A stretch of 64,000 nucleotides of DNA from Rhina ancylostomus (GCA_030265395.1 JARFYF010000001.1:60507996-60571995); one strand, 5' to 3'. Positions 11,130 to 63,875 are shown, numbered from the stretch's first letter. Program-made: numbers and translations. Notes: generated from the letters alone by a model not told the origin.

Positions 11130-12415
11130 ACACTATTGGAAATAGCTTACCTACTTCCTGTTGACAAAAAGTAGGATGTCCAATCTAAATAGTTCCCACA
11201 CAATCAGCCTACTTTCAGTCTTTACCAAAGGGACAGAGAGTGATATCTTACCCATAGTAATCTCACTGCTGTCCAGTTTTGTTTTGCCAGTTTCATCTGC
11301 CTCCAGACCTTATCACAGTCTTGGTACAGACATGGACCAAAGAGCTGAATTCTCAATGTGAGTTGAGAGTAACTGCCCTTGACATCAAGTTAGCATTATG
11401 CAGTCCTAATAAAACCAAAGGCAATGGGAAATTGGAGGGAAAANNNNNNNNNNAAATATTCCAGTAGTTGGAATTATACCTTGCACCCAGGAAGCTGGAT
11501 TAAATATCTGGAGGTCAATCATCCCAGCCCAGAACATTAATGTAGGAGTTTCTCACAGCAGTTTCCCAGGCTCAGCATCATAAGATCAGAAAAGGGGATG
11601 TTCACTGAGGATTGCGGCACATTCAGTTCTGTTTACAACAGCTCAGCAAATGAAGCAGTCCACACCTGCATGCAACAAGACCTAGACAACATTTGGACAT
11701 GGGCTGAAATGTGGCAGGTGACATTATGCCCCAAAGTGCCAGTCAATGATGGTTTCCAACATGGAAAGGTCTAACTACCTTCCCCTAATATTCAATGCTA
11801 TCACCATTGTTGAATTCCCACCATCCACATCCTGGGAGTCACCATTGACAAAAAACTCAACTGGACCAGTCAATTAAAGTTGAACAGGTCAAGTGCCAGG
11901 ATCTTACAGACTCACCATCTTACTTCCCAAAGCCCTTCTACAAGGGACCAGTCAGGAGTCTGATGGTTTACCTTCCACTTGCAGTGAGTGCAGATCCAAC
12001 AACACTTAAGCTCAACACCATCCAGAACAAAGCAACCTGCTTGACCAGCACCCCAATCTACCACCCGAAACATTTATGCCTTCCACCACTATTACACTGT
12101 CAGTGCACTGGATGCACTGCAAAATGCATTGCAATTACACATCTCAACCAAGCAACTCTGGCAGCCCTTTCCAATCTATTGACATGAAGGAGCATTGCCG
12201 ATATATGAGAGTGCCATCACCTGCTGCTTCCCTTCCAAGTTACATGTGGTCCTGACTTAAAAGCATCACCAACAGGTCTAAATCCTGGAACTCGTGACTC
12301 AATAGCATTGAGGACCTTTGCCAAAAGCACTAAACCAGCATAATCTCAAGGGCTATTAGAGATGGATAGTGAATTCTAGCCTTGCCAATGACACCCACAC
12401 AGACGTGAAAAAAAA
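11130..12415 (+). mobile_element. L2/CR1-group LINE, RT region plus 3' tail (degenerate)
   Basis: GGQSSQP..GVS..; MQQDLDNIWTWAEMWQV; ILGVTIDKKLNWT; tail CTCAAGGGCTATTAGAGATGG..CCTTGCCAATGACACCCAC then an A-run. A reverse copy of the 3' part lies at 47060-47470. Confidence 0.7.
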
Positions 12416-13374
12416 ATGCCAGTCTGTGTATCCTGATTGACATGTTTAATCTGTGTGATAAACTTCCTGAGTCCATGCCATATGTATTTACCAGAAGTGT
12501 GTTGGTTGTTCATGATTTTCCAGCCATTAATTTCAATGGATGGGAAGACATGGAGAACCTACTCATGATTTTCCATTATGCAGAGACATTTAAGGTTGTT
12601 TGTTGGGCAAAAATACTTTCAAATCTCAAATACTTTCATCCTTAACTGACTAAAGTAATTATTTGCCTGTGCATTAACCTTGCACTGCTAATACTTTAGT
12701 TCCCTTTTCAAATATATGCTCTGATGTAACATCTACCATTCTTTACTTTCCTTTGAGCTAACAGAAGGGGAAAATCAGAATTTCTTCTAATTCTTCATTA
12801 CAAAGATGTTTATAGGATTTAAGTGACAAACTGATCTATTATATAGAGAGTGTTCACTGGATTCATAATAATGTGAAATAACATTTCCTGAAAAATGTCT
12901 TTTTAGTGATAGTGATGTAAATATCTCAAAGGCAATACTGTCATTTTTTGAATGTCCTCCATGAGCTAATAATGACTTCAAAATAGGTTTTGTAACCTTA
13001 ACTACACACTGGGCCTTTTGATTTGATCAGCTTCACTTTAAATGGACCTTCCCATCGGATATCCAAAAAAAATACCTATATGAGACAATAGCCCCCTTTT
13101 AACTTAGACTAATGAAGTAAACAAAACTTAGATTACCGTTTCAGGTAGGAGCAGGTTAGAGCATGTTAAAATACTACTTTAAGGGATGTATCAATTGAAC
13201 CTTGTATGCAGAAAGCTTTTTAATTGTCAGGAGTAGACTAATGTGACATTGTTAATAAATTATCAAGTTAAGTGAAATAATTTAACATTTTTCAAAGTGC
13301 TATTTTGAGAATTTTTTAACATTACAAGTTTTTAAAAGTCCAAATATTTTTGCTGAATTGTACTCTCTTTGAAG

Positions 13375-13461
13375 GATGAACTGATCTACATGCTGCGAAA
13401 ACTTCTGTTGAATATCGGAGATATGCCTGCTCAGACGTCTCACATACTATTCAACTATCTG
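13375..13461 (+). CDS. UNC80: UNC80 exon 6 (DELIYMLRKLLLNIGDMPAQTSHILFNYL)
   Basis: ttgaag|GAT...CTG|gtaagt; 87 nt, phase 0-0. Confidence 0.96.
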
Positions 13462-13856
13462 GTAAGTATTAGTGGTGCCTTTATCATGTAAGATTGACCA
13501 TTCCTAAGCAATAATAAATTAAGCTTTAAGTATAAGCCATCCACTGTTAAATTTGATATTTTCAATTCATTTAAATTAAAGCTCTTTCCTATAATCTAAT
13601 AAATTGACAGCAGTTGACCACTCCTCCTCAATCATCTTCATGATGGAGCTATTTAATCAAAAATAGAACTTAGGAAGAAAGCTGCAAATCACATTGAAAT
13701 GACATTAATTTTTTAAAAAATCAATTACCTGAAGATGAGCTAATGACAGTGTGAGCATGGCCCTGGAAATATGTAGGATAGTCTTACCCTTAGGTTATCC
13801 AATTTACTACCATACTGAAATACATTCTGTTTTCATCATTTCCTGTTGCCTCACAG

Positions 13857-14040
13857 GTTGGCCTGATTATGTATTTTGTGCGCACCCCTTGTGAGTGGGG
13901 CATGGATGCAATCTCAGCCACTGTCACCTTTTTATGGGAGGTTGTGGTTTATGTAGAAGGACTTTTCTTCAAAGACCTGAAACAAACGATGAAAAAAGAA
14001 CAGTGTGAAGTCAAATTGCTCGTCACAGCCTCAATGCCAG
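13857..14040 (+). CDS. UNC80: UNC80 exon 7 (VGLIMYFVRTPCEWGMDAIS...VTASMP)
   Basis: tcacag|GTT...CCAG|gtaggt; 184 nt, phase 0-1. Confidence 0.97.
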
Positions 14041-14961
14041 GTAGGTGCACACCTACCTAACAAAAAGCAAGCAGTAACGAATGATGTGAAACATCTTTTT
14101 CTTGTTTCTAATTATTTTCAACTGCTTATGATGTTTGTGCATTTGCTGAAATAATAGAATGTTACTTAATAGTCACAAACTTTAGATTGTGACTTGGTTA
14201 CTGATAGTGTATCAAGTTTCTTTCTCTGCAATACTGTCACCTCTATATAAAATAAGCAGTCATAGTGTAATGTCAAGCCAAGCAGTCCTTTCCATAGCTT
14301 CAGATGAAGCTCTCTTAATGGTGATGTCTCTACCAGAAATGGATCTCTCAAGGCAGGAGTTCCGTATGTGGGTGATGGTCTAAAGATTCGTGGCTGCTTC
14401 ACTGACAAACACGTGCCTGAAAGGTGGCTGAGTGTCTCTCCAGTTACCCCACATCTCCTGCATGTCTTGTCCATTTTAGGCCTAGCTAAAGCAAGTGTAT
14501 TCTTGACGGTACATGCTTTCCATCTCAATAGCAGTGAAGTCACATAATGAAGTGTCTAAAGGATGAATATCCATTAATCCAGCTACGGGACCGGCAATCA
14601 TTCTTGTAATAAGAGACCTCGATTCCCTGATACCTCATTATACTCCATGCCTTAAATTCTATATCATGCCAGTTAATCCTAATGATCCTAACCTTTCCCC
14701 TGTTGAAGCTATTCCTTACCATATCCTCACAGTTGTCAAGCATTTAAAGTTCCCATATTTATCAATCAACAAATCCAAATGAATTCCAGCAAACTGGAAA
14801 CTCAACCCAACTTATTCCCCTGCTTTCTTAAAATAAGTATATTTCTTAATAATGGAAAGTGGGATCTGATTTCCAGTTTGGAAATTGCCAAACCACCATC
14901 CCTGTTTCTAGAATATAACAATCCATTGTTAATGCACTTCAGTAAGTGTTAAACATCATGA

Positions 14962-15360
14962 GAGGGTAGCATAGTGGTTAAGTTACTGGCTTGGTATCCA
15001 GGGGCACAGCACTGGTGACAAGTTCAAAACCTACCACAGCAACTGAGAAATTTATGAAGGCAAGCACAGTTATGTAGTGGTTAGCGTAAAACTGTTACAG
15101 CTCCAGCGACCCAGATTCGATTCTGTCCACTGTCTGTAAGGATTTTGTACGCTTTCCTCGTGCCTGCATGGGTTTCCTCTGGGTGCTCCAGTTTCCTCCC
15201 ACATTCCAAAGACATTCGGGTTGGGAAGTTGTGGGCATGTTATGTTGGCGCCACAAGCATGGCACCCTTGCAGGTTGTCTCCAGAACACTCTATGCAAAA
15301 GATACATTTCGATGTACGTTTCGATGTGTTTCGATGTACGTGTGACTAATAAAGGTATCT
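14962..15360 (+). mobile_element. tRNA-derived SINE head (14962-15055) followed by a V-SINE (15060-15360) with a Rex1-like tail
   Basis: A/B-box-like TAGCATAGTGG..GTTCAAAAC; V-domain GGGTTTCCTCTGGGTGCTCCAGTTTCCTCCCACATTCCAAAGAC; tail ..GATGTACGTGTGACTAATAAA. Confidence 0.75.
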
Positions 15361-15722
15361 TATTCCTTGATAAATTTCCTAATATCCTCATCTAATTTAA
15401 TTAAAATATTCTGAAATGCCTTATTTAAAACAAATGAATGGTAAAATCCAAAGATGAAGTGGATCTTAAATAATTCAACCTCCTGGGTCAGCTTAAACCT
15501 CACCCACAGAAGATTTTGACCCCATCCCTCGAGTTTACTGATCCATTCACCCGATGAACATCCTATCCAAGGATTGATTCTGGCGCCGAGGTACTTCTCC
15601 CAGTCACTAGGACTGACAAAATTAATAATTTCTTATTAAAAAGCCAGTTATGGGTGGTATTAAAAATAAAACTTTTGTTCTTAAAAAGCCATATAAAAAT
15701 GAAATTTTATTGATATTAACCT

Positions 15723-15990
15723 TTATTGATTTAAGTTTAGGGGTGGCACAGTAGCGTAGCTGTTAGCGTGACGCTATTACAGCGCCAGCGATTGGGGTTC
15801 GATTCCTGTCGCTGACTGTAAGGAGTTTGTACGTACTCCCGTGTCTGCGTGGGTTTCCTCCGGGTGCTCCAGTTTTGTCCCACATTCCAAAGACGTACGG
15901 GTAGGTTAACGTGGGGGTTTAAAATGGGCAGCGCGGACTTGTTGGGCTGAAAGGGCCTGTTACCACACTATAAGTAAAATTTTAAAAAGA
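15723..15990 (+). mobile_element. HE1-like V-SINE with CR1-type tail, inserted in R2; AACCT duplicated on both sides
   Basis: tRNA head GGCACAGTAGCGTAGC..GGTTCGATTCC; V-domain; tail GGGCTGAAAGGGCCTGTT; AACCT at 15718-15722 and 15991-15995. Confidence 0.85.
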
Positions 15991-17559
15991 AACCTCGAGG
16001 CCCGTTTTACAAAAATTCTCGAGGACCTTGAGATTTTTAGACATGCACATGTGAGAGCCACTCACAAGGGCCACATCATCAGCAAAAGCCAAAGCAGTAC
16101 AAAAAATATTACTTATCCTGAGGTAAAATCCTGAACCATCGCTAACCAATGAACAGAATGAGGTATCTATTACAATATTCAATAAAATAAGGGAAAGCAG
16201 GTCATCCTTAACCCCCCCTTCACAATAGTACCTGAATTTGCATGCAGATCCAATATAAGGTTCACAAAGTGGGCATCAACCCCCATCCTGCCCAAAGCCT
16301 TGAAACCTGGCTTGTGGTCGATGGAGTCAAAAGCTTCTACTAGATCTATAAAAACCACCACCATATCACTATGCTTCCTCTTGGCCCCCATCATTCGATT
16401 ATTTAGAATGTTAGTATTTTGATTACNNNNNNNNNNNNNNNNNNNNNNNNNNNNNNNNNNNNNNNNNNNNNNNNNNNNNNNNNNNNNNNNNNNNNNNNNN
16501 NNNNNNNNNNNNNNNNNNNNNNNNNNATTACACCCAGGGGTAGCCGCAACAAATCCTTCCTGATGAGCATGGAGGATTACCACAGTAGCTAATCTTTTTT
16601 GCTGAAAAATTGGTAAAAATACTCAATAAAACAGATCCAATGGCAGTGGGTTGCCAATTATCAATTCATTGTAGTTTATTGACAGTGTCAGATTTAGGAA
16701 TATGGACAGTCTGGCTTCCTTAATATTAGATGGAATTTTTCTACATTTGACCCAAAAGGAAAACATTTTGGCTAAAATATTGATTTCGATGTTCAGATTA
16801 AGGCCGCCCAGGCCAGCCTCAGTGTCCTTTCTAAAATCATCGACAGCATTTAAAATCCTGGTCACATTAGAATCTTGTAAGAGAAATAAAGTATTAGCAT
16901 GGGCTAAGCAGGGGCTAAATTTATTGATGTTTGCCTTGTTATCAAACACCATGAAGCAAGATCTAAAATGAGGCTCCAAATCTTCAATACTAATGGGACA
17001 ACCTACCTCATATGGGCTCCCCATCAGCTGCCTGGCTAAACTTTTCCTATCTTTCCTATACAAATCTTGCATTTCCTTAAATTTAGTCTTCCTAGCAGAG
17101 GAGTTATAGCCATTATTTTTACAGGCCCTACCATCCTCCTTATTCTTAACTTTGATCCTAGCTTCCTTTCTATTAGACAACAAGAGGCCTGCTACTGTCT
17201 CTAAAGTCTTAAAACACATGGCGCCAAGATCATTCCTGCCCAAAAGAATATCCACCTCACCAAGGAGCTGAGAGAGAGAAATTTTGTCCTGACTAAACCT
17301 ACTAACCGGATTATCAGTGTCCACACTATTTGGACCAGTGTCCAGATGAGATCTGTTCTTCCTTTGATCTTATCTCCAATGTGGTGTTATCATTAGGGTC
17401 AAGAATGATGCTAAGGCATATATTACCTGAAATGCCTTCTACATGAAAGAAGGCCTCACCAAATTTGCAGAAGATCTACATCAGATGATAACAAATTCAT
17501 CTTCTACAAGCTGACCATAACATTTTTCTACATGCCACCAAATAAGCTCTGGTTTAACA

Positions 17560-19020
17560 TTGTATTACACCCATTAGCAGATCTAATGACCAACTATCGA
17601 CACTAGTGACTTCATCAACCAACATCACATGGGATACTCAAGTAGCAACACTATAGGAGAACAAGTATCAAATTGGGCCTCCATGCATAACCTTAAAACA
17701 ATGCAAAGCAGCCTGCCACCTTCCATTCCTCTAGATAGGAAAAGGACTAGTCAACTGGTGTTTGTTTCATGACCCACGACAAGAGCAGATTGCTGATGTG
17801 CCCTTTCCAGTGCTGCCCATCTTCCTGTGTTCCAAGTATCATCCAAGTCTTATTTACATTAACCATGAGCAACTATCCATATAGCCGAACCCGCACTGGA
17901 GTCTGCAGTAGATACATAGAATCATTAAGCAAATCCCTCCCCTTCTGGAAAATTAGATTCACTTCACTTATCTTTTCATACTGGTAACTACCAGTAAATT
18001 CCCTGAAATTTTAGAAAACTTGCATCACTTGCTGGACCTCAGAGTGATCACCTTCTAGAAGAATGTAGGAAAAATGAAGGTTCTGACATGGTAAAAGTAC
18101 TCCACAACTCTCTTGATGGAAGAAATCTCATAAAACAGCAGGAAGCAGGGGAATACAATTTCCTCACACACTGAAGTCAAAAGGCCCGGGATTCTTGTTC
18201 TGTTTTGGAACAGCTGACCAACAACTACATCAGTAGCAAAGAATTATTGCTGAAACTATAACTTCACAGCTTTCAATATGCTGACATACACCAGCCAACA
18301 GGGGAAGTTTATGGACAGTACAGACTATCCTGATGCACTTTGTCAAGAATGTCCCATAGATTTTCCAAGTCCTTACACACAAAAGGAGCTGAGCAGTGAC
18401 CTGAAGGCAACCAAGTTGGGGATAGCTGCAAGAGTTGATGGAATGCACAGAATCCCTGAAGAACATTTGACTACAAGGAATGAAGTAACCAGAAAAGGTG
18501 TTTACCAACATCTGCGCACAGTCACCATTCCAAATATCTCATGTTAATCTGGGATCTGGATTGTTTAATGGTCATAACCAAGCCAGGGAGGCCACCAAAC
18601 AATCCACCAGCTACCACACCATCACCATCCTCTCAATAACTTCTAATGTTCTGGAATCTCTTCTGCTGAAAAGATTGAAGTCTATTCCAAAATAGCAATG
18701 ACCTATCATGGGCAGGTTTTGTACAGTTCCAAGCAGGTCCCATTTTCAACCTCTGTCATTGATCTTGAATTCTAGGATTACCTGAAGAAGGAGCTATGGC
18801 TGTTGACCTCTTTAATGACACACTATAGTTGTGCTGCTGAAATTCTTCAAAATCTTCAACTAATTATTTCCATGATCAGCAATTGACAGTTCTGGGAGCA
18901 CCATAAAGATTCAATCTGCCAGCCACATACAATCACTTATGGGCTCCTAAAGGGATTGATCTTGGCCTCAGCCCTCTTCAACCTCCTTCCATGCAAAATC
19001 GCTGCTCTTCATCCATGCAA
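17560..19020 (+). mobile_element. Degenerate APE-type LINE, Vingi/ingi-like (endonuclease plus RT)
   Basis: DF..HMGY..GEQVSNWASMHNL..QPATFHSSR; YTQKELSSDLKATKLG; SYHTITILSITSNVLESLLLKRL; YGLLKGLILASALFNL (decayed GLPQGSVLAP.LFN). Confidence 0.55.
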
Positions 19021-19929
19021 TAAAAACAGCTATCCACATAAATAATCAAATCAAAAAATAATGGGTAATGTATTAACTAGACAAGGCATATGAAAGATTT
19101 AAGATGGAGAATATATAAAATAGTAATTTTTATACTACTTGTAACAATTTCTAGTTAAATATTCTTAGTTATAATTACATTTTAAATTACTGGGATTATT
19201 CAAAACCTTTGTGTCTATGAATCTGGTTTGAATTGCTGCTGTTAATCTTGACACTGTTTTATGCTAATGATAAAAATCACTTCACTATTTGTTTAGTTTT
19301 GAGCTGAATAGGCACAAACCTTGAGGATAAAAGCAAATGATACAAATTGGACTCCATCTAAAATTGCAGAATAGGTCTGTATTCTTTTATGTGCAGTGGT
19401 TTGGAATCAAAGCATTTAGACACTGTTAATATACTTCCTATTCTACTGCTTTTGTTTTCAGCAAAAGATTTGTGGTGTAGGCCTTCCCCCCTTCCTTTTG
19501 TTCCGTTACAGTCCATATGCTTGCTTGGTGATTGTTGCAAAGGTCAAACTGCTAGGGCAATGTACAATTCTTTGCATACCTCTCAGTAGTACAAGAATTG
19601 CACTGATGTAATTTATTATCCATTTTAGTTGGTATGATGTATATTTCAAAGAATCTGATTGTTATAAGAAGTTTGTGGAACATTAGTGGTTTCTCTGTCA
19701 AAACTGATGTTGAGACTGGGATGTAAAAATTACTGGCATGTAAAATTTTATATGTATAATCTTAATTCCAATAATATTTGCTTAAGTTACTCAATGCAGT
19801 TGAATTGCATCAAGTGGATTACATCATCCATATCATTTAGTTGACTTCATGTTATTCCCATCATTTAAAAGTGAGAGCCTTTACTAATATCACCTTGGAG
19901 TGCACCATTCATCTTGTCAAAACAAATCC

Positions 19930-20010
19930 AAAATAAAACTCTGAAAATCTGACATGCTCCAGGACTTTTGTGCTTGACTAGCAGATTTTCCAGATTATTG
20001 GACATTACTC
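19930..20010. mobile_element. Possible left end of a Tc1/mariner (Tigger-like) MITE; putative right end at about 24010-24070
   Basis: AAAACTCTGAAAATCTGACAT resembles the reverse complement of ATGCTGGATTATTGGAGTTT at about 24045-24065. Confidence 0.35.
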
Positions 20011-20089
20011 TTAATAAGAGCCCAGCACACTTTTATTTTGCTTTTTTTTCCCACGTGTTACACAGAAGTACAAGAAGATAAAATAGCAA

Positions 20090-20412
20090 CATAAGAGACT
20101 ACAGGTGCTGGAATCTGAAGCAAAAATAGAAACTGCTGGAGGAACTTGGTGGGTCAAGCAGCATCTGCAGGGGGAAAGAATTGTTGATGTTTTAGGTCAA
20201 GACCCTGCATCAAGATTGAGAGTGAAGAGGGGAGATGGCTGATATAAAGAGGAGAGGTGAAGGGGTGAGACGGGAGCCAGTAGGTGGATCAAATAGTGCA
20301 AAGAATGATGAGCAGAAGGAGCTAGAAGCCAAAAATGGGAGGAGGACCAGAAGGAGGAGTGAGGGGATGGGAGCACATGAGGTAAGAGTAACCTGAAATT
20401 GGAAAACTCAAA
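20090..20412 (-). mobile_element. Penelope-like element 3' end
   Basis: Minus strand ..FEFSNFR (GIY-YIG-type ORF tail, recalled as NIEFSNFR), then a pyrimidine-rich UTR, a decayed hammerhead core TTGATGCAGGGTCTTGACCTAAAAC and the tail GTTCCTCCAGCAG. Confidence 0.65.
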
Positions 20413-20469
20413 CCTCTGCCAGAAATTTTTACATGCCTTTGCTTTCAGTGAACAGCTTCTCATCTTGAA

Positions 20470-23400
20470 ACTGTGTCTCCTTGTTCAAAACTCTCCCATA
20501 ATGAAAACATTTTGACATTGACCCTGTCATGCCCCCTTNNNNNNNNNNNNNNNNNNNNNNNNNNNNNNNNNNNNNNNNNNNNNNNNNNNNNNNNNNNNNN
20601 NNNNNNNNNNNNNNNNNNNNNNNNNNNNNNNNNNNNNNNNNNNNNNNNNNNNNNNNNNNNNNNNNNNNNNNNNNNNNNNNNNNNNNNNNNNNNNNNNNNN
20701 NNNNNNNNNNNNNNNNNNNNNNNNNNNNNNNNNNNNNNNNNNNNNNNNNNNNNNNNNNNNNNNNNNNNACATTGACCCTGTCATGCCCCCTTAGATCTTA
20801 TACAATTCAGTAAGATCATTCTAAAGTTTGGATCTTCTGAAGTCCAAAGAATAAGGACCCAATCTATTTAGCTTCTCTTGAACTGTTCTCTCTTCCCAGG
20901 AATTAACTGGCTGAATCTCATTTGGATTGCCTCCAGATGTACTGTATCTTCTCTTTGATAATGGCACCATATCTCTGCACAGCCTCCAGGTTGTTGCCTC
21001 ACCAGAACCTGGTACAATTGTAACAAAGCTTCCCTATTACTAAAATCCAATCCTTTTGCAATAAAGATAAATATGCCATATGCCTTCTCAACTATTTACT
21101 GCACCTGCCTGCTAATTTTTCGTGATTCATGCACAACAACACCAAGATCCCTATGCACTCCACTCATTTGCAGCCTGGTTCTATTTAGGTAATAATCTGT
21201 CTTTTGATTCCTCATACCAAACTGCATGATCTCGCACTTTCCCCTATAAAATTCCATTTGCCAAATTTTCACCCACACACTCAGTCAATCTATATCCTGT
21301 TGCAGATCTACAATATCCTCAAAACAATTTGCCCTTCCACCTATTTTCATGTCATTAGAAAACTTAGATGTGTTACATTCGGCCCCCTCCTGCAGGTGAT
21401 TGATGTGAATTGTAAATAATTAAGGGCCAAGAACTGAACTCTAGGGTACTCCACAGGTTACATCCATCCAACATGAAAAAGTCCCGTTTATTCCAACTTT
21501 CTATTTTCTATGTGATAACCAATTGTCAGTCCATGCTAACACACCTCATCCTGTACCACACACTTTTAGCTTGTACACCAGCCTTTTATGTGGCACCTTG
21601 TCAAATGCCTTTTGGAATACAAATACAGAACATCCATAGGTTCCCCTCTATATGCTCTGCTTGTTATATCCTCAAAGAACTTGAGCAAATTTGTCAAACA
21701 GGATTTGTCTTTCATGAAACCATATGGGCTTGATTTGATTACATTTTGCTTTCCTAAATGCTTAGCTATTTCTTCTTTGCTTATTGACTCCAGCAATTTG
21801 CCAACAATAAATATTGAATTAACTGGTCTATGGTTTCCTGCCTTTTGTCTTCCTCCCTTGAACAATGAAGTCACATTGGCTGTTTTCAAATCCACTGGTA
21901 TCTTCCTGAAATTCAGTGACTTTTGGAATACATCAACTAGTAGATCCTTTTCTCTGCATCCATTTCACATCTGCCTTTAGTCTGTGAGTTTTTATAATAC
22001 TTTGTTCCTCGTGGTTGGGGTTTTTACAAGTTCTTCCATACTATTTGAAACTAGCCCATCTGTTATTGGGATATTTGCAGTGTCCGCCACAGTAAAAAGT
22101 GATACAAAAAGTTCTTTTAACACATTTTCTTCTGTGATGATATTAATTCCCCAGTCTCATTCTCTAGAGGTCCCACATTAAACTTAGCCACTCTCTTCCT
22201 CTTTGGCATTAGGCAAGTAGGATTAGTGTAGATGGGCACAATGGTGGACACGGTGGGCCAAAGGGTCTGCTTATGTGCTGTACAACTCCATAGGTAGAAT
22301 ATTACAGCACAGAACAGGCCCTTTGGCCCACAATGTTGTGCTGACATTTTATCCTGCTCTAAGATCTATCTAATCCTTCCCTCCCGCATAGCCCTCTTTT
22401 CTATCATTCATGCGGCTATCTAAGAGTCTCTTAAATTTCCCTAATGTATCTGCCTCCTGCACCTCTGCTGGCAGTGCGTTCCACACGCCCACCACTCTCT
22501 GTGTAAAAAAAAAACTTGTCTCTAACATCCCCCCATACCTTCCCCCAATCACCTTAAAATTATGCCCCCTTGTGTTAGCCATTTTCACCCTGGGGAAAAA
22601 NNNNNNNNNNNNNNNNNNNNNNNNNNNNNNNNNNNNNNNNNNNNNNNNNNNNNNNNNNNNNNNNNNNNNNNNNNNNNNNNNNNNNNNNNNNNNNNNNNNN
22701 AAAAGTCTCTGACTGTCCACTCGATCTATGCCTCTTATCATCTTGTACACCTCTATCAAGTCACCTCTCATCCTCCAGCACTCCAAAGAGAAAAACCCTA
22801 GCTTACTCAAACAATCTCGTAAGACATGCACTTCAATCCAGGCAGCATCTTGGTAAATCTCCTCTGCACTCTTCCTAAAGCTTCCACATCCTTCCTATAA
22901 TGAAGCGACCAGAACTGATCATAATACTCCAAGTGCGGTCTAACCAGAGTTTTATAGAGCTGCAACATTACCTGGCAGCTCTTGAATTCAGTACCCCAAC
23001 TAATGAAGGCCAACACACCAAACGCCTTCTTAACAATCCTATCAACCTGTGCAGCAACCTTAAAACTATATATCCATTGAAACTTTAAATATTTGTTTTA
23101 GTATTACATGCAGTTTTGCTCTCAAAATTAATTTTCTCCTTATGGGCTTTTTAAAATCTTTTCTCTGTCTGTCTGTCTGTCCTGAAAAATTCCCAATCCT
23201 CTGATCAGCCAATAATCCTTGCTACTTTCTATGCCTTACTTTCCAATTAACGTTACCCTTAATCTTTTTTTAACCATGAGTAAGGTTCCTCTTTCAATGG
23301 AATCCCTCTTTCTATTTTTGCTGAGCATTATGAACTAGCTGTTTAAATATCTGCCACTGTTCATCAACAGACCCATTTCTTATAACAAACCTCCTGCTGG

Positions 23401-24877: not shown

Positions 24878-24972
24878 GTACAAAGACTTTGGTTGTCCAT
24901 GGACAGAATGAATGTGATATTCCAACACAACTTCCTGTGCATGAAGATACACAGTTTGAAGCTGTTCTAAAG
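24878..24972 (+). CDS. UNC80: UNC80 exon 8 (GTKTLVVHGQNECDIPTQLPVHEDTQFEAVLK)
   Basis: caccag|GT...AAG|gtaaag; 95 nt, phase 1-0. Confidence 0.96.
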
Positions 24973-62508: not shown

Positions 62509-63649
62509 GTGAGAATGAATTTTGATCTTTCAGAGTAATGCTGAAAATTCAGGAATTGATCTATGAATATTATTTTGGAATGGATAAGGAGAAAATTATC
62601 TCAAAATGTTGATTTAATATTTTAAGGTTCCTTAAAACATAAAGTGCTGGATCACCAGCTTGGGCATCTGTCTGTGGCTTTATTGATAGTTTGTAGCTGC
62701 AGCGTGTGCCACTTGTAGTCCAACAATGGACCAGCCAAAATACAGAGTTCATCAGGCTAGACCTCTGATAACTCCACCTTGCTTGTCAATCATCAGTGCA
62801 GGGTGAGCACATTTATGCTCACGCCTTGTAATATTGGTCTTTCTAGGTGTTTAAAATGAACATCCCTGGGGACTGTTCTTGGCTGTGGCCTTTCTTGGGG
62901 TAGACAGTAGCCACATTTGAACCCACACCACAAATAAGGACAAAGCTGAGAAACACCACCAAGGTTTTCCTTCATCTGTGCCCTGGGACGAAGGGTATGT
63001 TTAAAAATAAATACTTCTGCATTACCCACATATAAACAGTAGGCTGCTCTACCCACATATAAACAGCATCAATATCTTCCCTCCACCACTATGAAACCAA
63101 AACTCAGCACTGTATTTCCTTCCCTGAGCTTAGAAAGCCTACTTGTTGCTGCAGCCTTGCTGGATGCCTCCTTTGCTGTTGAATCCTATACTTGCATCAG
63201 ACTGCACTTCACTTCCAGAATTCTGGAAAGTTGGTTACTTCAGGATTTGTAGCATTAAACGATATGACGTCAGCGCAAACCTGGGAGAAACAAAGTTTAT
63301 GGATGCAAGCAGAATTTCTGGCTGCACTTTCACCAAACTTATAGCAGTAGAACAGGAGTGATGGAAACAAAATTCATGAATGATTACATTGTATAAGGAC
63401 CTTTTGTTCTCTTGTTGAAGTTCAGTGTATACTAAAATTACAGTCTCTTTCCAAAGGTTGTGTAAGGAAATATTTTGCTCAAAAGATTTCCAAAGAAGCA
63501 CCAGAAGTTGCAAAAGATCTTAACATCTTTTTACTCTTTAAAAACAAAAGTAGGGAATTCTTATGACTCTTCAGAATTTTGTTGCACGCTAGGATTCCTT
63601 TCAAATACATTATAGGAGTGCAGAATTGTGATCATGTGTTTCCTGAGTA

Positions 63650-63875
63650 CACTATTACAGCGCCAGCGATCGGGGTTCAATTCCCGTCGCTGTCTGTAAG
63701 GAGTTTGTACATTCTCTGTGTCTGCATGGGTTTCCTCCAGATGCTCCAGTTTCCTCCCACATTCCAAAGGCATACAGGTAGGTTAACATGGGTTTAAAAA
63801 AAATGGGTGGTGCAGACTTGTTGGGCCGGAAGGGCCTGTTACCATGCTATAAATAAAAATCTAAAATTTAAATTT
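63650..63875 (+). mobile_element. HE1-like V-SINE, 5'-truncated, close relative of the copy at 15740-15985
   Basis: CTATTACAGCGCCAGCGATCGGGGTTCAATTCC..GGGTTTCCTCCAGATGCTCCAGTTTCCTCCCACATTCCAAAG..GGGCCGGAAGGGCCTGTTACC. Confidence 0.85.

Follow-up and report, generated by a model that had tools for sequence, protein, structure and literature searches.

A dead, partial R2 retrotransposon of the shark-and-ray A lineage lies antisense in an intron of UNC80 within the window, a stretch of 64,000 nucleotides from Rhina ancylostomus. R2 normally inserts only into ribosomal RNA genes, and this copy, called here the relic and without predicted function, is best explained (probability of about 0.65) as a stray copy of an element whose normal target is 28S, inserted by a route that we infer. 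The positions of the relic, of its inserts and of the neighbouring exons are collected in Table 1. As the exons on either side match consecutive parts of human UNC80, the relic is placed in the antisense direction in an intron of 10.8 kb, which agrees with the sequence-only reading of this DNA, where the element had been located inside an UNC80 intron and away from 28S rDNA; no rRNA was found. Terminal or target-site repeats near the relic ends were not detected when each end was searched separately, and a second LINE in 17400-18700 had no support from Pfam or tblastx.

Table 1. Features of the window in and around the R2 relic, counted from the first nucleotide of the window.
Feature	Position	Strand	Evidence
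UNC80 coding exon before the relic; GT donor at 14041	13857..14040	+	phmmer to human UNC80 residues 1932-1997, E 3e-35
Candidate decayed front half of a restriction-like endonuclease, statistically marginal; without intact PD-(D/E)xK, C-terminal block or 3' UTR	14160..14378	-	profile 0.2 bits; 2 of 5 pairwise queries above 40 null segments
R2 thumb end, linker and CCHC zinc knuckle (CRRCG..ETLSHLSGTC..RIFR)	14379..14955	-	protein alignment; Pfam zf-RVT E 0.003
Later insert(s) dividing the thumb: SINE copy and short fragment	14956..15360	+	80% identity over 162 bp to other copies (insert 15718-15990 and copy 63651-63782)
R2 RT end and thumb (EKYLGARINPWIG)	15361..15717	-	43% identity to P0147 residues 570-659
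SINE between TGLEV and NINK	15718..15990	+	84% identity over 221 bp to copy 63649-63866
R2 RT core (VVFIDLVEAFD, degraded GVKQGD, AFADD)	15991..16426	-	Pfam RVT_1; PDB R2 chains best, E 2e-8
100-N assembly gap	16427..16526	.	GTAAT shared by flanks; protein reads across
R2 spacer remnant, pre-RT RNA-binding region (KFKEMQDLYRKDRKSLARQLMG..CPI) and RT start	16527..17366	-	PDB chain 9nl2 E 9e-6; phmmer
Next UNC80 exon, closing the 10.8-kb intron	~24878..24972	+	phmmer to human UNC80 residues 1994-2025, E 2e-15

The minus strand from 17366 to 14379 aligns colinearly to the protein P0147 of Scyliorhinus torazame in a frameshift-aware alignment that closes the N gap and passes over the SINE inserts, where 283 of 735 residues (38%) are identical over about 2.2 kb. 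Eight frameshifts and three stops (at 16666, at 14812 and a third at a SINE junction) are crossed, and the reverse transcriptase (RT), thumb, linker and CCHC knuckle follow each other in R2 order across the 735 residues. Using proteins from an exhaustive search (see below) as queries, tblastn recovered colinear pieces at about 17270-16200, 16215-15988, 15632-15363, 14948-14870, 14695-14537 and 14549-14379; firm homology of the first R2 segment (16527-17366) begins at about 17270, and this 5' end stops before the Myb and zinc-finger regions. The earlier proposal of one colinear polyprotein stitched across frameshifts, SINE inserts and an N gap is therefore upheld, and every motif quoted for it was located on the minus strand and in the order given.

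Regarding the gap, GTAAT occurs on both of its flanks, an overlap of 5 bp, and closing it restores a continuous GCN-QNT reading. Since the flanks share these bases and the protein reads straight across, its true size is probably zero. Both inserts, which we take to be SINEs, came later than the R2 insertion. The one at 15718-15990 splits the TGLEV-NINK motif and has AGGTT at both ends, likely a target duplication, while the R2 protein alignment picks up again beyond the one that splits the thumb. Adjoining the SINE copy in the thumb insert, a short fragment resembles, by eye, the head of another tRNA-type SINE.

The assignment to R2 was approached through profiles, structures, protein searches and trees. 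In Pfam, the pieces match RVT_1 (E 7.8e-5 and 0.02) and zf-RVT with scores that do not reach the curated cut-offs, and the best PDB matches of the pre-RT and RT-start pieces are solved R2 proteins (Table 1). An exhaustive phmmer search over 1.84 billion proteins returned 138 matches, the top four of which comprise one shark-type R2 protein from JGI and three proteins of Chiloscyllium punctatum, a bamboo shark; a second protein search added R2s of S. torazame, turtle, coelacanth and fishes. Compared to these 138, searching a word index of proteins with the pre-RT piece gave nothing among 2262 candidates. The relic is 38-40% identical to shark R2s over about 640 columns, against 21-26% to Utopia-like proteins, and shares with the shark lineage the signatures LARQLMG..CP, NKANxNKF, GFxAATPGCN and GARIxPW. 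The statement that its motifs align best with vertebrate R2 proteins agrees with the best PDB and phmmer matches.

For the trees, proteins covering fewer than 250 of the 382 RT-thumb positions were excluded, as were seven near-duplicates; a FastTree of 187 rows joins the relic to the shark R2s, and two smaller sets were hand-picked from these rows or from the match lists. With IQ-TREE, the relic is sister to the shark R2s both on 34 rows and 383 columns (97/98) and on 21 rows and 653 columns (99/98), in the latter case within a shark-turtle-coelacanth group (100/99). A metagenome scan yielded 16 distant RT loci of 24-40% identity, one of which served as outgroup; none is a shark R2, and the 28S motifs tested are absent from all of them. 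The trees hold no verified Hero or R4 references and no protein of the stingray R2-1_HSa, and Hero and R4 were judged through the ranking of the exhaustive search. Forcing the relic together with two spider proteins, presumably Utopia-like by an EH motif of NeSL/Utopia type, was rejected on the 653 columns (AU p=0.005) but not on the 383 columns with a long RTE-like outgroup (p=0.067), so that the RT phylogeny suggested earlier as a check places the relic in R2 and separates it from these two Utopia-like proteins on the longer alignment only.

The order RT-CCHC-RLE had been taken as the mark of the R2 group. As this layout is also common to NeSL/Utopia, R4 and Hero, it is not diagnostic, and the assignment is settled instead by the tree and the nearest relatives: judged on its protein sequence, the relic is an R2, of the shark clade, as the sister position and the identity to P0147 indicate. 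It branches outside all sampled shark proteins in the 653-column tree, where its composition is atypical, and its branch is long (1.0-1.2). Part of this length is decay. Of 91 residues that do not vary among nine R2 proteins, 28 differ in the relic, compared to 6-14 of 93 in four control proteins, an excess that simulated neutral decay reaches at about 0.10-0.15 substitutions per site; at that decay, the simulation predicts 6-9 stops (minimum 2-4), against two clear stops in the relic. Neutral decay would then have altered roughly 10-15% of the relic's bases, and the rest of the branch is probably due to an unsampled subfamily.

The description of the element as near-complete did not hold. The relic corresponds to residues 427-1147 of the 1289-aa protein P0152, about 56% of its length; the N-terminus of P0152 matches, by eye, the R2-1_CPu of Table S2 of Hassan et al. 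(2026, PMC13188248), a table where most shark A-type R2 rows measure 4.2-4.7 kb. Its closest relatives, P0002 and P0152, have three zinc fingers and a Myb domain, and no remnant of either was found in the 3.2 kb upstream (17300-20530), where none of four queries scored outside the range of 12 null segments. These domains are missing because the copy stops before that region, as in a truncation. At the other end, the last firm base, 14379, lies 338 bp from the splice donor, and the relatives carry about 142 residues (an ORF of about 430 bp) past the knuckle, plus the 3' UTR, which cannot fit into that distance; the 3' end of the relic has therefore been lost as well.

Between the knuckle and the donor, the stretch YIEVTV..KV..Y, described earlier as endonuclease-like, is probably an endonuclease remnant, although unproven. 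In its favor, two of the five pairwise queries exceed all 40 null segments, one of the two in the frame of the earlier description. Meanwhile, the RLE profile, made from 65 proteins, aligns the stretch to the right motif at about the expected distance, but its score of 0.2 bits is below that of at least 15 of 2547 random tiles, all three local alignments past the knuckle end at 14379, and the catalytic PD is absent. A motif in another frame (WLDITL) scored with one of the five queries only and in a different register; neither frame is established.

Around the relic, the 28S rDNA expected on both sides at TTAAGG/TAGCCAAA is absent, and both junctions are lost. Rfam gave no match at the gathering score over the 64-kb window, thus no rRNA, and over 12000-23000 it gave two chance-level matches other than rRNA and none to a ribozyme. 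Motifs of the 28S target matched at no more than chance level, 15 times with two or three mismatches, compared to 10.1 expected, and of two further 28S motif searches near the relic, one returned a single distant match with three mismatches and the other none. The 28S leader motif of the 5' HDV-like ribozyme was not found near the element either, as expected for a 5'-truncated copy. Rfam and the motif searches therefore agree with the observation, made from the sequence alone, that no 28S target stands at either end. As both junctions are lost, this absence does not reveal the original target and is weak evidence.

The relatives of the relic are more informative about its origin. Among the matches that were named (30 looked up, plus those named in the second protein search), 14 R2 gene models of C. 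punctatum are found on 14 contigs: 11 on scaffolds of 11.5, 4.4, 2.2, 2.0, 1.9, 1.7, 1.35, 0.86, 0.53, 0.21 and 0.18 Mb, and three on contigs of 4.8, 4.5 and 1.9 kb. The five models of S. torazame are on contigs of 487 kb, 255 kb, 10 kb, 5.6 kb and 4.2 kb. The bamboo-shark models form three subfamilies, all of them represented on a large scaffold, and nine models on nine large scaffolds make up a single family with pairwise identities of 57-84% over the aligned parts; scaffold size is an indirect sign of a position outside rDNA, and these copies could sit in dispersed 28S fragments. One gene model, P0059, is fused to a receptor-like gene. An apparently intact member of the sublineage, of 1291 aa, is annotated within the turtle PDE3B on a chromosome of 156 Mb; two motifs of this protein do not occur in the first 400 characters of the cells of the PMC13188248 supplement.

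These copies can be connected to the ribosomal target. P0149, from the largest bamboo-shark family, differs by eye at four of 60 zinc-finger and Myb residues from R2-1_STig of the zebra shark, which is inserted in 28S and is filed under clade A in Table S7 of PMC13188248. Given this near identity, the dispersed copies belong to a 28S-targeting family, and it appears from these protein comparisons that 28S-targeting shark R2 families leave dispersed, decaying copies. In addition, 12 of the 13 chondrichthyan R2s of Table S2 have upstream 28S, indicating that the lineage kept its target, and R2-1_CPu has 28S on both sides in the same table (PMC13188248). Either an off-target insertion or a lineage with lost specificity had been proposed for the relic; since its nearest clade holds the 28S-flanked R2-1_CPu and the lineage kept its target, the first fits better, whereas the second is at odds with these relatives.

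As a mechanism, an A-lineage R2 protein would have nicked a non-ribosomal site, and the R2 RNA would have been reverse-transcribed at the nick (target-primed reverse transcription), stopping early and leaving out the 5' part that encodes the zinc fingers and Myb. The stray copy would then have decayed neutrally, losing its 3' end by deletion and receiving the SINEs. Dead R2 copies would be purged from rDNA arrays by turnover while those outside persist, so strays would accumulate. Several points count against a stray insertion: both junctions are gone, so for the relic itself the off-target event can only be inferred; R2's own reaction normally preserves the 3' end, so its loss would be unusual in a newly made copy and calls for a deletion afterwards; the subfamily of the relic itself is unsampled, lying outside all sampled shark proteins; and the two clear stops are fewer than the 6-9 of the simulation.

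The strongest competitor, although improbable, is that the relic descends from an extinct cartilaginous-fish R2 subfamily without 28S specificity, which spread like an ordinary LINE. Its position as deep sister to the sampled shark R2s and the lack of 28S nearby are compatible with this origin, and non-specific R2 families are known (PMC5035012, PMC7650587 and PMC13188248). The nine related bamboo-shark models on nine large scaffolds would also suit it, but their family is nearly the same in the DNA-binding region as the 28S-inserted R2 of the zebra shark, and dispersal is seen in all three bamboo-shark subfamilies instead of one; the nearest clade, moreover, has 28S-inserted members, and the relic lacks the DNA-binding domains in which a change of specificity would show. 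If this doubtful origin were true, a deep R2 subfamily with abandoned or strongly relaxed 28S targeting would be the first vertebrate case. The shark-turtle-coelacanth A sublineage may also be intrinsically promiscuous, as the 11 bamboo-shark models on large scaffolds and the turtle copy in PDE3B would suggest.

Slightly less probable still is that the copy once resided in a 28S gene and was moved to the intron as a DNA fragment, through break repair or recombination, or that its RNA was copied by the enzyme of another LINE. Such events could explain why the relic lacks both ends, the 3' end among them, but a later deletion accounts for the lost 3' end equally well. In Table S2, R2-1_SCa has, by eye, about 110 bp of recognisable upstream 28S after sequence that does not look like rDNA, showing that joined pieces of R2 and 28S can occur outside the arrays (PMC13188248); no 28S trace is seen beside the relic.

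An assembly chimera that put R2 sequence into the intron is very improbable. The assembly is gappy (11 N runs) and one gap falls inside the element, but R2 reads through this internal gap, the outer junctions are free of gaps, and the copy is heavily decayed with SINE inserts of its own, unlike a homogenised rDNA copy; 76% of the words sampled from the stretch also occur in one sequencing run, though this may be the source sample. Across ten sequencing runs, the share of sampled words was 0.08-0.14 in eight (perhaps SINE words), 0.34 in one from another organism and 0.76 in one. Finally, a NeSL/Utopia, Hero or R4 element can be set aside as the least probable of all, as the common layout and the grouping left standing on 383 columns are outweighed by the first rank of shark-type R2 among 1.84 billion proteins, the identity values, the rejection on 653 columns and the shark-lineage signatures.

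A single dead copy has little weight alone. As a class, stray R2 copies in the slowly evolving genomes of sharks and rays would record the frequency and the sites of missed ribosomal targeting by vertebrate A-lineage R2, a record that bears on gene insertion with A-lineage R2 proteins. Furthermore, with a conserved UNC80 exon next to it, the insertion is easy to locate in relatives and could date the lineage.

Compared to known systems, the relic is closest to the chondrichthyan lineage-A R2s described by Hassan et al. (R2-1_CPu, R2-1_STig, R2-1_SCa, R2-1_SAc and R2-1_HSa; PMC13188248), which are of the same clade and have the same order from the pre-RT region to the knuckle; as far as their tables show, those elements are flanked by 28S and in many cases complete, Myb and three zinc fingers included, whereas the relic is intronic, frameshifted and without both ends. 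The solved vertebrate R2 proteins (PDB 9nl2, PlaMe, and 9nl3/9dou, R2Tg) are the best PDB matches of its pre-RT and RT pieces, but PlaMe is only 28% identical to it and is placed by the trees in a different A sublineage of vertebrates. A literature search of incomplete coverage returned no paper whose subject is R2 dispersed in the genomes of cartilaginous fishes.

Outside vertebrates, incomplete R2 copies beyond the rDNA have been described in five Drosophila species (PMC2718515). Like the relic, these are incomplete, diverged copies outside 28S in hosts whose R2 is 28S-specific; they are 1-2% diverged, whereas the relic is about 10-15% decayed and sits in a vertebrate, in the intron of a conserved gene. 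Two non-specific R2 families are reported from a planarian and a liver fluke, in a source that also lists R2 in the angel shark (PMC5035012), together with dispersed R2-like elements in cockroach (PMC7650587) and non-site-specific homologues in sponges (PMC13188248). The R2NS families have in common with the relic an R2-related sequence without a 28S flank; in the same accounts, they comprise several young copies of the C or D clade with resolved, unrelated flanks, whereas the relic is one old copy of the A lineage with lost junctions. According to a 2026 review (PMC13580325), the split into site-specific elements and others is an oversimplification, specificity being a continuum, and loss rates may differ inside and outside rDNA. 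Set beside these systems, the relic most plausibly represents one stray among many from a known 28S-targeting lineage of sharks and rays.

Among the proteins returned by the R2 protein search, P0154 (XP_065448199.1) from the turtle Chrysemys picta bellii is annotated as PDE3B isoform X1 and lies on a 156-Mb chromosome, having 1291 aa with three zinc fingers, a Myb domain, a reverse transcriptase (RT), a knuckle and an endonuclease. It is an R2 ORF, apparently intact. In the tree, it groups with the shark and coelacanth R2s, with PlaMe, a solved vertebrate R2 protein, placed outside that group. The newt protein P0031 (KAJ1189461.1, Pleurodeles waltl), which is R2-like and located on a 1-Gb scaffold, is also taken into this shark-turtle-coelacanth group, with weak support (80/73). 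Regarding the bamboo shark Chiloscyllium punctatum, the gene model of P0059 (chiPu_0010732), carried by a 1.9-Mb scaffold, is a fusion of an R2 RT fragment with an extracellular domain of receptor type (PF01094, PF07562), and it is probably an R2 relic adjoining or within a receptor gene.

The UNC80 intron bearing the R2 relic of Rhina ancylostomus also holds other LINE-like sequence, as listed below together with the assembly gaps. The second RT shares only 20-30% identity with R2 proteins and, by eye, is presumably a CR1/L2-type LINE. Beside the 5' end of the relic, the plus strand at 17400-18700 bears a faint by-eye likeness to a decayed LINE, for which Pfam and tblastx gave no support. As each of the three gaps has matching sequence or a T run on its two flanks, their real size is probably near zero.

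LINE-like features and assembly gaps (window positions)
Feature	Position	Strand	Remark
Second decayed reverse transcriptase	20500-22250	minus	same intron as the R2 relic
Further LINE 3' end	~22300-23100		after the second RT
Gap	16427-16526		identical 5 bp on each flank
Gap	20539-20768		identical ~24 bp on each flank
Gap	22601-22700		T run on each flank

Compared with the R2 elements in PMC13188248 Table S2, P0154 is unlike the Chrysemys R2 given there, and it is a candidate for a second turtle R2 lineage, putatively outside rDNA. In that table, R2-1_CCar (great white shark) is entered as lacking 28S on both sides, and the recognisable upstream 28S of R2-1_SCa (catshark) reaches only ~110 bp; these two shark elements may themselves be non-array copies.
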